Of a stretch of DNA of 47,250 nt, positions 13,823-46,550 are shown one piece after another (within the stretch, counting starts at the first letter, position 1; each line of letters starts with the position of its first letter). The notes beneath the pieces are model-generated. The model worked only from the letters and a program-made list of their open reading frames with translations, did not search any database and was not told the origin of the DNA. This DNA is from Candidatus Saccharimonadota bacterium (lineage in GTDB: Bacteria > Patescibacteriota > Saccharimonadia > Saccharimonadales > JAGPDM01), in NCBI GenBank assembly GCA_018057585.1, contig JAGPDM010000002.1, positions 1 to 47,250 of the forward strand, written 5' to 3'. Both the position numbers and the translations under genes were made by a program.

Positions 13823-14030
13823 AAATGACTTAAGAAAATTATAATTGTACTTGATGGCGATGACGAATCGTATAAATAGATCCAGATAAAGTCGCTAGAG
13901 CCAGCACAATTACCAGCGCACATTCCTTCCGACATAAGGCTACAGATTTGATTATAGCTTTAATGCCTAGTTAGTGGAAACCTATAATTTAAGCTCACAA
14001 ATTACTCTCAGAATGACGAAGATACCTGAT

Positions 14031-14270
14031 CCAAATCCTACCAGCGGGAATTTGTTAACTTCCTTTGTCTGGGCATAAAGGATTGAGTCCTGATATGTGA
14101 ATGTTATTTAAACAATAATACATTTTATCTTGCCCTTCGGGCCGACTGAAAGGAGTTGTTAAAATGATTGTTTCAATAACGATGAACATCTCAAGATGAA
14201 GGATCAGCCCAGGAGCTTGCGATACTTGTCGGTACAAGTATCATTCAATTTGTTACTTTGCAAAAGAAAA
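14031..14270. repeat. structured dyad-symmetric intergenic element, copy 2
   Basis: Same block order as copy 1. Hairpin GATACTTGT-cggt-ACAAGTATC. Central stems GTTATT/AATAAC, AAACAAT/ATTGTTT, CATTTTA/TAAAATG. Apical GCCC-ttc-GGGC. Ends 20 nt from the ruvC stop. Confidence 0.8.
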
Positions 14271-14289
14271 GATTGTTCAGAAGAACATT

Positions 14290-14757
14290 CTATCTCTGAT
14301 GGCTATGACAAAGCGCGGCAGCTAGCGCATCAGCCGCATCGTCAGGGGTTGGTTTAACTTTCAGTTCAAGTAGCACTCTGACCATTTCTTGTACTTGAGC
14401 TTTGGTCGCCTTGCCGTAGCCCGTAACAGACTGCTTAATCTGCAGAGGCGTGTATTCAAATATCTCTAGCCCCGCCACTTCACCGGCCAGCAAAACTACT
14501 CCGCGGGCATGGGAAACAGCGATCGCTGTTGTGACATTCTGTGCGAAGAATAACTTTTCGACCGACATAACTTCTGGTTCAAATTCGCGAATCAGGCCAA
14601 CTAAGTCTGTATGAATAATCTTTAGTCTCTCGGGCAGAGGCGTATGTGGTATAGTTCGGATTACGCCACCAGCCACCATCGATGGCTTGCCTCTTTTAAT
14701 ATCAATCACTCCGAACCCGGTTATGCCAGTGCCCGGATCGATGCCAAGAATCCTCAT
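14290..14757 (-). CDS. ruvC: crossover junction endodeoxyribonuclease RuvC
   Basis: MRILGIDPG start, 155 aa, typical RuvC. Confidence 0.93.
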   Translation of the reverse strand: MRILGIDPGTGITGFGVIDIKRGKPSMVAGGVIRTIPHTPLPERLKIIHTDLVGLIREFEPEVMSVEKLFFAQNVTTAIAVSHARGVVLLAGEVAGLEIFEYTPLQIKQSVTGYGKATKAQVQEMVRVLLELKVKPTPDDAADALAAALCHSHQR

Positions 14758-24406: not shown

Positions 24407-24655
24407 TCATATCCGGCCGCAGGCAAGACCTAGCCAGACAGATAAGAATAATAAAATCGAAGTAAATATTGCTAATATTATGAGCAATATACTTATACTT
24501 ATTTTAAATTTACCACTTTTATTTAGCGTTCTTATTTTGCGTAAAATATAAGCAACGACAAGCCATCCCGTAATAAAGAAGAGGAAAGCTAGAAACTGTT
24601 TAAGGCTTTTGTTTGGGTCGCATTGACCTGTTCCGAAAAAAGCAAAGTAATCCAT
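24407..24655 (-). CDS. small membrane protein (hypothetical)
   Basis: 82 aa, two TM helices. Confidence 0.35.
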   Translation of the reverse strand: MDYFAFFGTGQCDPNKSLKQFLAFLFFITGWLVVAYILRKIRTLNKSGKFKISISILLIILAIFTSILLFLSVWLGLACGRI

Positions 24656-24699
24656 GAGTTAGATTATATCAAACAGAATCGCATACACTGCACTGATAA

Positions 24700-25093
24700 T
24701 TACTGGAATGAAGGCCCAATCTTGAACTCAGAAACTTCCACTTCTGCCCAGACATTTTCGATCACGTATGGCTCCATCTCTAGGAGCGGCAAAACACTGC
24801 CAGACGCAATTATTGAGATGATACCGTTACTTCGCAGATAGTCGAACAGTTCATAAGCTCCATCACGTAGATAGTCGGACTTTTCGACTAGTTCTTCCAG
24901 GTCTTGTTTCGTTATGCCTTTTAAGAAATTTATACGTTGAACTAGCCCAGATAGACCGGTGAGGTTTCCCTCCCAAATTGCCTATTTAGCTCCATGCTTT
25001 CGACCTGCTTACCAACAGTTTTTGCAAGCAAGTCTGACATATCTTCTGTCGTTATCGTCCCATCAAAATCAATGACTACTGCTTTTGCCTTCA
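24700..25093 (-). pseudogene. HAD-IB (phosphoserine phosphatase-like) pseudogene: frameshifted and C-terminally truncated
   Basis: Frame 1: MKAKAVVIDFDGTITTEDMSDLLAKTVGKQVESMELNRQF... stops at 24942-24944. The adjacent frame continues GNLTGLSGLVQRINFLKGITKQDLEEL...IISIIASGSVLP and stops at 24700. The later HAD motifs are absent. Confidence 0.65.
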
Positions 25094-25155
25094 TAGTTAT
25101 GCACTATATCAAATCAAAGTAATTATCATGTCCACATAATTAAAAGAGGACTCTG

Positions 25156-25174
25156 TTGGAGGGCCAGGAGGGAC
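25156..25174. repeat. 19-nt direct duplicate of the tRNA-Lys 3' end (TTGGAGGGCCAGGAGGGAC)
   Basis: Identical to 25333-25351. Confidence 0.9.
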
Positions 25175-25302
25175 GACGCAGCGGAGCTGCTATTCCGTCG
25201 CTGCGAGTCTTACGAGTGAACTCGACGAGTCTCGCTCCTTACGAACCCTTTTTGCTAAAGCAAAATACGGGTTCGAAGTTCACTGCGTGAACTTGCCAAT
25301 TC

Positions 25303-25326
25303 AAAAAGTCCCCCGCTAAGGGACTT
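25303..25326 (-). terminator. intrinsic terminator after tRNA-Lys
   Basis: Minus strand: GTCCC-ttagcg-GGGGAC followed by TTTTT. Confidence 0.75.
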
Positions 25327-25333
25327 CATGAAT

Positions 25334-25410
25334 TGGAGGGCCAGGAGGGACTCGAACCCTCGACACCGGGCTTAAAAGGCCCGTGCTCTAACCAGCTGAG
25401 CTACTGGCCC
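25334..25410 (-). tRNA. tRNA-Lys (anticodon UUU), CCA encoded
   Basis: Cloverleaf by hand: GGGCCAG/CTGGCCC acceptor, GCTC/GAGC D stem, CGGGC-CTTTTAA-GCCCG anticodon arm, GAGGG-TTCGAGT-CCCTC T arm. Confidence 0.93.
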
Positions 25411-25524
25411 ACTTCTTAATTGTACTTTGCTCACTCATTTTACACCAAGTTGCTTTTACCAGAGTTGAGGGTTAGAGCACAGAGTGCTTATTGATCCTAC
25501 TCGGCGTCAAGCACCTCGGACAGG

Positions 25525-25542
25525 CAGCTGAGCTACTGGCCC
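25525..25542. repeat. 18-nt direct duplicate of the tRNA-Lys 5' end (CAGCTGAGCTACTGGCCC)
   Basis: Identical to 25393-25410. Confidence 0.9.
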
Positions 25543-25622
25543 TAGTCGAAACTTGTTAAATTTTACCGCACAACCTCTGTTGTTGCAACATTTTCTAACA
25601 GACATGCACGTCGCAATATCTA

Positions 25623-25961
25623 TTAATTCGTCAAAATATGAACATCGACAAACCAAGTTGTCGCAAATGCCGAGTGCAAGTGGCCAAACAAAGCCTGGTC
25701 ACCTTCCCTGCCTAGTGTCACGTGAATATGAACATTGCCACTATCAACACTGCCAGTTCCAGACAACTCTAACGGTTCGTCATACTCATTAAGCACATCT
25801 TTAGTAGCATCTTCTTTCCGCATGCTGGAGATTGTAATCTGATCAACTCCGCCGATCACCGAGACTATCGAAGCCTCTGTGATTCCATCCTCTTTAAGTT
25901 TAGCGGTTAGTGAAGCAACTACTTCATCGACGCCGGAGAACCTATATTTTACTAGCTTCAT
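25623..25961 (-). CDS. PPC (DUF296) domain protein
   Basis: 112 aa. The pattern IVSVIGGVDQITI ... HIHVTLG ... FGHLH is typical of PPC/DUF296. Confidence 0.65.
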   Translation of the reverse strand: MKLVKYRFSGVDEVVASLTAKLKEDGITEASIVSVIGGVDQITISSMRKEDATKDVLNEYDEPLELSGTGSVDSGNVHIHVTLGREGDQALFGHLHSAFATTWFVDVHILTN

Positions 25962-26347
25962 TAAACTATTGGAGGTTGGTTGCTCGGTGGAATTGGTACT
26001 GATTCAGGACCAACTGGGTTAACGTTGATACCAGAATCGTCAGCAATTTGGTTGTAAGCACTCTGACATAACGCCATCGGAATAATTGGTGTTACGAATA
26101 TGCTTAAAAGAAAGTTTAGTATCGCACTGGACTGGTTGTTTGTTACTTGCTGAGCTCCCTCAAAATACTTCCATTGCCAGTAGAGACCACCTACAAATGG
26201 GATCAACATCAGCCAGGCTGTAGGAATTTGGGCTCCACGCCTATTCAATTCGCCCTTTGTCTTAACAAACCAAACAAGTGCATAGATCCCAAATGTTACA
26301 AATGGCAATAATATAACTGCTGCTAAACTTCTTTTCTTCATATTCAC
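25961..26347 (-). CDS. DUF4234-like membrane protein
   Basis: RSLAAVILLPFVTFGIYALVWFVKTKGELN resembles the DUF4234 signature. 128 aa. Confidence 0.55.
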   Translation of the reverse strand: MNMKKRSLAAVILLPFVTFGIYALVWFVKTKGELNRRGAQIPTAWLMLIPFVGGLYWQWKYFEGAQQVTNNQSSAILNFLLSIFVTPIIPMALCQSAYNQIADDSGINVNPVGPESVPIPPSNQPPIV

Positions 26348-46335: not shown

Positions 46336-46412
46336 GGCGGCGTAGCTCAGTTGGTTAGAGCGCAGGACTCATAAGCCTGAGGTCGGAGGTTCGAGCCCTC
46401 TCGCCGCTACCA
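46336..46412 (+). tRNA. tRNA with anticodon CAU (elongator Met or Ile2; not initiator-like), CCA encoded
   Basis: GGCGGCG/CGCCGCT acceptor (G1-U72), CAGGA-CTCATAA-GCCTG anticodon arm, GGAGG-TTCGAGC-CCTCT T arm. Lacks the three G-C pairs of an initiator anticodon stem. Confidence 0.9.
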
Positions 46413-46419
46413 TGAATAG

Positions 46420-46444
46420 ATCCAGCCTTGTGCTGGATTTTTTC
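46420..46444 (+). terminator. intrinsic terminator after tRNA(CAU)
   Basis: ATCCAGC-cttgt-GCTGGAT followed by TTTTT. Confidence 0.8.
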
Positions 46445-46534
46445 ATGGTTAACGATGAGCATTTCCTAAGAGAACTTTCTGATGCGAGCTATGCTTGCAA
46501 TAATTAAATTCTGAGCCTGCAGAATTTAGGCAGT

Positions 46535-46550
46535 CCTCTCGCTGCTACCA
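46535..46550. repeat. 16-nt near-duplicate of the tRNA(CAU) 3' end (CCTCTCGCTGCTACCA; 1 mismatch)
   Basis: Compare 46397-46412, CCTCTCGCCGCTACCA. Confidence 0.8.

Follow-up and report, generated by a model that had tools for sequence, protein, structure and literature searches.

Why is a tRNA gene bordered on each side by an exact copy of its own nearest end, and what are the inserts that lie between gene and copy? This question is raised by a tRNA-Lys(UUU) gene in the stretch of 47,250 nt from a Candidatus Saccharimonadota genome that was analyzed here (the window). The initial annotation noticed both copies and considered three sources for them: what is left of an integrative element after its excision or deletion, collapsed tandem tRNA copies, or a small structured RNA riding on an attachment site. 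Saccharibacteria have tiny genomes with few recognized mobile elements. We report that the 3′ insert belongs to a hitherto undescribed family, which we call S, of short non-coding elements that are rich in hairpins and located 3′ of many Saccharibacteria tRNA genes. The genome containing the window, designated G000, is 68.5% complete, with 67 contigs that add up to 834 kb; other genomes are designated in the same manner.

Results

Both ends of the tRNA-Lys gene are duplicated

The tRNA-Lys(UUU) gene lies at 25334–25410 on the (−) strand, and its 77 nt include an encoded CCA and the T-loop TTCGAGT (ARAGORN; Rfam tRNA, 72.4 bits). The two repeats first noticed at this locus are real. On the 3′ side, the 19-mer at 25333–25351 recurs exactly at 25156–25174 (−) with a spacing of 177. 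This copy, referred to as the tail, consists of the last 18 nt of the tRNA (canonical positions 59–76 including CCA; GTCCCTCCTGGCCCTCCA) and one matching flanking base. Two matches to the 19-mer with at most 2 mismatches were observed in the window against 0.00 expected from 100 shuffles, and the whole genome contains it at its two sites only. On the 5′ side, the first 18 nt (25393–25410) recur exactly at 25525–25542 (−) with a spacing of 132, again with 0 expected by chance. A tRNA-Lys(CUU) gene elsewhere in the same genome, on another contig, begins with this 18-mer as well.

The 3′ insert was examined part by part in the orientation of the tRNA, with all parts on the (−) strand. The gene is followed by a terminator-like hairpin with a T run (T1, 25296–25333), the stem extension of which pairs the tRNA CCA with TGG. 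Next come a variable hairpin P0 (AAGTTCAC/GTGAACTT, 25276–25295), the hairpin P1 (CGAACCC...GGGTTCG, 25242–25275) and a 67-nt core (25175–25241). The core contains TAAGGA, several hairpins and the motif GACGGAATAG, and it ends in GCGTC; one hairpin is GCGAG...CTCGC with an inner CGAG-TTCA-CTCG, and a last small hairpin follows GACGGAATAG. The hairpins that had been named earlier are at the positions given for them. The region is also richer in GC than its surroundings, as had been claimed, with 0.49–0.52 over 25100–25550 versus 0.425 for the genome. The 159-nt insert folds better than shuffled sequences on the tRNA-sense strand (z −3.0) and on the opposite strand (z −3.8), which bears out its description as hairpin-dense. 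We found no ORF in this insert and no inverted repeat pair within 24500–26200.

The neighboring genes were inspected as well. Directly downstream of the tail, a HAD-like gene is split over two frames (24945–25094 and 24703–24981, both (−)), in agreement with the frameshift reported before; each piece gives only a sub-threshold HAD match, and the two match successive parts of the profile. In contigs of run X5, which is probably DNA, the sequence does not differ at this point, and the frameshift is thus no peculiarity of the assembly that contains the window. Upstream of the locus, genes for a PCC-domain protein and a DUF4234 protein occupy 25623–26347 (−). Contigs from two true metatranscriptome runs cover only the ORF at 25700–25898, which is part of the PCC gene, and are uninformative for the element. 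The locus itself is nearly unchanged in 17 wastewater or activated-sludge runs among the 12 studies listed.

The 5′ repeat marks a separate insertion

The duplicate of the tRNA 5′ end had been singled out as unusual, and it proved to have a history of its own. Between the outer copy and the gene lies a 114-nt leader (25411–25524, (−)), which folds no better than shuffled sequences (z −0.1 and −0.3). It does contain the D-arm-like GGTTAGAGCAC in opposite orientation that had been described; the inverted match to tRNA nt 18–28 is positioned at 25470–25480 rather than at 25472–25482. Farther out, a promoter-like site TTGCAA-17-TAAAAT (25560–25588, (−)) occupies the position of the native tRNA promoter and is conserved in G003 and G002. 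The genome G003, which represents a sister genus, has the same 5′ arrangement with a head copy at −131 that carries 2 mismatches and tracks its tRNA's own change at position 7, and its leader is about 80% identical to that of G000 over the first ~60 nt. In one tRNA-Lys(UUU) copy of G002, a close relative, the same promoter region directly abuts the tRNA, which thus starts where the outer copy lies in G000. The filled site in G003 and this empty site in G002 indicate a 132-bp 5′ insertion that duplicated nt 1–18 and is separate from the 3′ element. We suggest that it would be independent of and older than the latter, and that it may have pushed the native promoter upstream.

No other copy of the 114-nt insert was found in 60 relatives except for one weak 23-nt match. 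A similar head copy is present in G000 at tRNA-Ala(GGC) (contig C55, 8085–8278), where 17/19 nt of positions 1–19 recur at −117, again just after a TAAAAT-like box; the head copy is absent from G002 and G003.

The 3′ insert belongs to a family of elements at tRNA genes

Iterated nhmmer searches of G000 recovered 18 copies of S, 6 of type A (including the one at tRNA-Lys) and 12 of type B. Sixteen of these are immediately preceded by a tRNA gene in the same orientation, and a contig end truncates the tRNA in two cases. The elements follow one order: intact tRNA, terminator hairpin T1 pairing the CCA, P0, P1, conserved core and a copy of tRNA nt 59–76. Both types share P1 (CGAACC.../...GGTTCG), the motif GGAATAG and the ending GCGT(T)C that abuts the tail; the core measures ~80 nt in type B versus the 67 nt of type A at tRNA-Lys. 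Viewed from the tRNAs, 6 of the 27 in G000 have an exact copy of their own last 18–19 nt at a distance of 149–168 nt downstream. A seventh, tRNA-Met in the window, has a 16/18 copy, for a total of 7/27 at up to 2 mismatches. This second instance in the window spans 46336–46550 (+) and comprises tRNA-Met(CAU) (46336–46412), a terminator hairpin, a scaffold of ~83 nt, the tail (46533–46550) and a second terminator hairpin. The scaffold matches neither the type A nor the type B model and looks like a third element type.

S-carrying tRNA loci number 11/27, 6/33 and 13/31 in three genomes of the family, or roughly 20–40%. The encoded CCA is missing in one of 91 tRNA loci examined, and that locus has no S. 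At all tRNA loci of G000, we observed a hairpin extension that pairs the encoded CCA and the next bases with ...TGG beyond the T run; this pairing occurs after real tRNAs and after many tail copies. Only tRNA passed the gathering score in the Rfam 15 search, proposed earlier for the inserts, when it was run on the window region and 13 element loci. In the literature searched, no description of such elements was found.

The core is structured and its flanks copy the cognate tRNA

We explored whether the cores have a conserved structure. Compensatory changes occur at 14 of the 22 base pairs predicted for type B, and two subterminal hairpins, P2 at the left end and P3 ending 8 nt before the right end, are both supported by covariation. 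One pair is G-U in 11/12 copies, which favors the tRNA-sense strand as the one that folds. The P3 loop of several type B copies reads GCGAAGC. As DNA, this sequence is known to form a mini-hairpin of exceptional stability, which hints that single-stranded DNA could be what folds. For type A, RNAalifold gave no consensus structure from nine gappy copies. The fold of the tRNA-Lys copy stays 80% paired across copies versus 34–48% when the partners are slid. Covariation is weak, with 4 pairs changed on both sides and no better than shuffles.

The flanks of the core are specific to the host tRNA. In hosts of the TTCGA type, the tail runs from canonical nt 59 to CCA; in tRNA-Met(e) hosts, where the T-loop has TTCAA, it begins at nt 53–55, and at one locus an exact repeat of 63 bp includes the terminator. 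On the left side, the 5-mer that precedes TTC(A)GA in type B makes up the P1 3′ strand and borders the core. These were compared with positions 49–51 of the T-stem over 29 rows, a few regex false hits among them. The match was 1.62/3 for cognate pairs versus 0.89 for non-cognate pairs, and 0/10000 permutations scored as high. In copies with exact or near-exact tails, all five bases match, and additional matches of this kind are seen among the further loci of the order. At tRNA-Lys as well, the P1 3′ strand resembles the T-stem 5′ strand followed by TTCG (AAGGG here, GAGGG in the tRNA). Since the P1 3′ strand copies the 5′ strand of the cognate T-stem, the core lies within the T-loop of a second, partial tRNA copy (nt 49–76). 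The real gene stays intact upstream with its own terminator hairpin. The T-loop of the host reads TTCGA in 29/29 S-bearing tRNAs versus 40/59 non-bearing ones in three genomes, where the 29 loci include orthologues and are thus not independent. Most type B left junctions read TTCAGA and not TTCGA, so nt 57–58 are not simply derived from the target.

The partial second copy gives some substance to the earlier suggestion of collapsed tandem tRNA copies; with collapsed or decayed copies, no mobile element would be needed. Segments of a second copy (nt 49–56 and 59–76) do flank the core, and the 5′ leader holds direct nt 1–18 and inverted nt 18–28 copies. No second cloverleaf is present, with no remnant of one detected at E values up to 10, and the core is one conserved family common to unrelated tRNAs, which largely refutes this origin. 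We regard it as highly improbable.

The structure also raises the possibility that S with its tail is a functional RNA, i.e. a transcribed non-coding RNA whose match to its tRNA is maintained. One form of this would be a guide-like RNA, made of a scaffold and an 18-nt 3′ guide with TTCGA as TAM; another would be a mimic of the T-arm and acceptor 3′ strand that acts on tRNA genes or tRNA-handling enzymes. The multi-hairpin, covarying scaffold with G-U pairs on the tRNA-sense strand is consistent with such a role. So are the identity of the tail with nt 59–76, often followed by its own terminator hairpin, the match of both T-stem strands to the cognate tRNA, the TTCGA that precedes the target in 29/29 cases, and the position of S downstream of the tRNA promoter in the same orientation. 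By eye, the element contains no complement to the acceptor strand that would let S and its tail fold like a tRNA.

S elements turn over among relatives

The occurrence of S was examined in other genomes. The type B model matches 7/61 relatives and 17/151 Saccharimonadales genomes, a patchy distribution, and the highest counts of 6–12 per genome are those of G000 and two of its three family relatives. The layout is well kept: it is found in 13 of 14 loci of relatives, where the one exception runs into a contig end with no tRNA reached; in 6/7 GTDB loci with the type B motif, the exception (L104) having no tRNA; and in 3/4 metagenome loci, with L120 truncated by the end of its contig. Another 17 loci from the order show it in 15 cases, with tRNA ends 53–81 nt upstream and 6 exact tails.

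Orthologous tRNAs differ in what they carry. The gene for tRNA-Lys(UUU), with T1 orthologous in G002, G003 and G054, is followed by type A in G000 versus type B in these three genomes, and the tRNAs for Asp and Arg(UCU) likewise differ in S type between genomes. At the Met-i locus, G002 and G003 have T1 and the flank in common and different cores, one with an exact tail and the other with a degenerate one. Several tRNAs are filled in one species and empty in the other species of the same genus. Units also occur in tandem; their distal tails are more degenerate and are older.

G002 contains tRNA-Lys(UUU) twice, at C10:15001–15074 and on C31 (loci L027 and L076). One copy has the native promoter, and the DNA beyond its 3′ end is foreign. 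Behind the other lie ~400 nt that include an unannotated ORF of 132 aa, then a 9-nt tRNA end, T1, type B and a tail. These arrangements are nested insertions at this tRNA.

The tails, the P1 matches and the cores decay together, which is the behavior of a selfish element rather than of an indispensable RNA. This joint degradation in older copies counts against the functional RNA introduced above, as do the roughly half of tRNAs that have no S and the differences between close relatives. We therefore consider a functional RNA rather unlikely. Of the three sources first proposed for the locus, a small structured RNA on an attachment site comes closest, in that the insert is conserved, structured, multi-copy and always followed by a tRNA 3′-end copy.

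Orphan copies lie in another repeat family

Another intergenic repeat family of ~300 nt has at least six copies, two of which host a type B core. It is present in the window at ~13950–14320 (−) and 32925–32942, and on the G000 contigs C24, C29, C60, C65 and C67; it is marked by acttgtaccgacaagt, caagctcctgggctg, GTTCATCGTTATTGAAAC, ttgtttaaataaca and atgcccagacaaagga, and no match was found in Rfam. The two orphan type B copies within it allowed a filled site to be compared by eye with an empty one. The comparison suggests an insertion of ~80 nt after TTCTTGA with no target duplication.

Recombinases, reverse transcriptases and nucleases are not linked to S

The repeated tRNA 3′ end had been read as the scar of an integrase, and such a direct repeat is a textbook mark of integration (PMC9897764). 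The segment could accordingly be an almost wholly deleted integrative element between attL and attR, or a minimal attP circle moved in trans, and the tail-X-tail arrangement does fit a Campbell-type layout. An Xer-like tyrosine recombinase is encoded in 4/4 family genomes, being the only recombinase in G000, and large serine recombinases are found in 3/4. Neither kind shows a link to S elements. The bounded segments measure 149–168 nt and have no ORF. No larger, kb-sized island bounded by the tail repeat was found. In G002, where a serine-recombinase island adjoins tRNA-Glu, the tail is not repeated within 19 kb, and scans of viral contigs with the S motif for an autonomous version gave 0 matches. 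Moreover, the tail and T-stem that accompany the same core change with the host tRNA, a pattern that a fixed attP cannot produce. Because the same core recurs with uniform size at many tRNAs, with neither integrase nor island, the first of the three proposed sources, an integrative element since excised or deleted, is not supported for the 3′ side, and a classic integrase scar in any form appears very unlikely. The ORFs near the atypical loci L076 and L104 belong to no Pfam family.

We also examined retroposition, in which S RNA would be copied by a reverse transcriptase in the manner of a SINE. The tRNA or its gene would then be where priming or a template switch takes place, and this would give rise to the tail and the T-stem copy. 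Several features agree with it: the duplications are anchored at the mature ends of the tRNA and at its two elbow loops (nt 59–76 and nt 1–18/19), their length of 18 nt is that of a retroviral primer-binding site, repeat lengths vary (18, 22–24 and 63 nt), and the conserved structure is on the sense strand. Reverse transcriptases are present in 4/7 S-bearing versus 8/54 S-free genomes. This association was not retained, since the enzymes are mutually unrelated and one lies on a contig of eukaryotic type. They include a group II intron enzyme (G001), a group-II-like protein of 323 aa (G003) and a retron-like one (G054). G042 has two matches, on contigs C45 and C14; the former (L038, 1.5 kb) encodes a set of domains of the kind found in eukaryotic LTR retrotransposons (reverse transcriptase, RNase H and integrase zinc finger) and is probably contamination of that MAG. 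No reverse transcriptase was found in G000, G002 or G057 and none adjoins S, so that the hosts of S have heterogeneous enzymes or none rather than a shared source. An m1A58 modification stop was likewise dropped as an idea: TrmI/GCD14 was not found in four genomes, which makes such a stop unlikely and speaks against retroposition. Overall, we judge retroposition to be quite doubtful.

The remaining families searched were nucleases and transposases. TnpB (PF07282) was found in 0/1 and 0/5 genomes and Y1 TnpA (PF01797) in 0/4, with genomes that are 68–99% complete. Cas1 (PF01867) and DDE_Tnp_1 were each found in 0/4 family genomes, which are 68–90% complete. The lack of TnpB and Cas families weighs against a functional RNA. 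A natural guide RNA would combine the scaffold with an 18-nt guide equal to tRNA nt 59–76, and its target is preceded by the TAM-like TTCGA. A point against it is that such a guide, matching the intact gene next to it, would be directed at a tRNA gene of its own host cell. The effector would have to lie outside the tested families, or homing would be RNA-templated with no dedicated nuclease. We find this an unlikely reading.

Discussion

Our preferred reading is that S is a new family of tRNA-targeting selfish elements. More specifically, we lean, at roughly even confidence, toward a family of small, non-coding and non-autonomous selfish elements of Saccharibacteria that reside at the 3′ ends of tRNA genes. 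Building on the observed anatomy, cognate flanks, T-loop association and turnover, we infer a route with two parts, entry mobilized in trans and recombination between tails. The core would be a discrete unit, with the insertion activity supplied in trans. Its entry, on the 3′ side of TTC..GA in the T-loop, may proceed by way of a folded single strand, either DNA or RNA, with no target duplication, much as in IS200/IS605-type elements. Only insertions that leave an intact copy of the tRNA would persist. Once placed between two tails, the unit of T1, P0, P1 and core could be lost, regained, stacked and exchanged between strains by recombination across the 18-nt tails, and the copies would then decay. 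This route leaves the origin of the partial second tRNA copy, of P0 and of the P1 5′ strand unaccounted for, which limits the selfish reading. Further points against it are the failure to link any enzyme to S in the four family genomes, the TTCAGA at most type B left junctions, the tails from nt 53–55 in tRNA-Met(e) lineages, the 63-bp repeat at one locus, and the weak covariation of type A, the type present at tRNA-Lys.

The flanks of S copy both T-stem strands and the acceptor 3′ strand, an indication that the T-loop of tRNA genes is read during insertion or homing. We know of no enzyme for such a process, and there is possibly a new targeting mechanism to be discovered. If the guide RNA reading were true, S would represent an RNA-guided system of a new kind, for which the ends of tRNA genes serve as safe harbors in ultra-small bacteria. 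Genome annotation needs to take account of S, which brings with it partial copies of tRNAs, additional terminators and breaks in assemblies at its repeats. S may also be used to track strain turnover in wastewater Saccharibacteria.

Among known systems, the integrative elements of tRNA genes, including cis-mobilizable ones with att sites only, are similar to S in that they insert at the 3′ part of the tRNA and keep the gene intact, have a partial 3′ copy from T-loop to CCA at the far end, and accrete in tandem. According to PMC9897764, mobile-element integration commonly leaves partial tRNA copies, and the elements there measure 9–23 kb, one with 44-bp repeats. S shares the direct repeat of the tRNA 3′ end; it differs in its size of ~150 nt, in having no gene, no linked integrase and no fixed attP core, in carrying its own tRNA's tail and T-stem in each copy, and in a T-loop that is split by a structured core.

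IS1634-like elements produce long target duplications. Casposons are reported to favor the 3′ end of tRNA genes and to give unusually long direct repeats (PMC5137440). S resembles both groups in its long direct repeats at this site. It differs in that neither Cas1 nor a DDE transposase nor terminal inverted repeats were found with it, and its repeat is interrupted, the left part (nt 49–56) lying apart from the tail. Nor does S look like a DDE-type MITE, as it has no inverted repeats, its ends are dissimilar, and no DDE_Tnp_1 was detected in the four genomes.

The primer-binding site of retroviruses is 18 nt long. Like that site, tRF-3 and eukaryotic SINEs, S is small, non-coding and linked to tRNA, and its 18-nt unit equals nt 59–76. 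SINEs differ from it in that S has a bacterial host, no consistent reverse transcriptase and no poly-A or LINE-type tail. Type V-K CRISPR-associated transposons home with a short guide that matches a tRNA. S differs from these in having no Tn7-like genes, Cas12k or CRISPR repeat and in a unit below 200 nt; its guide-like copy of 17–18 nt from the tRNA 3′ end, shortly downstream of the tRNA, is reminiscent of them.

The PATEs and TnpB omega-RNAs of the IS200/IS605 group are small, have hairpin ends and insert at short motifs with no duplication, with a flank of 16–20 nt serving as guide. S differs in that neither Y1 TnpA nor TnpB was found in the four genomes, Rfam gave no match, and the site of TTCGA plus target is intact in the upstream gene. 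S resembles them in being small, with subterminal hairpins at both ends, and it may also enter 3′ of TTC..GA with no duplication, as the orphan site suggests. The observations on a specific insertion motif are mixed: the orphans lie after TTCTTGA as judged by eye, all 29 hosts have TTCGA, and most left junctions read TTCAGA. As in the omega-RNAs, the right end is structured and is followed by a flank that would be the guide of 16–20 nt.
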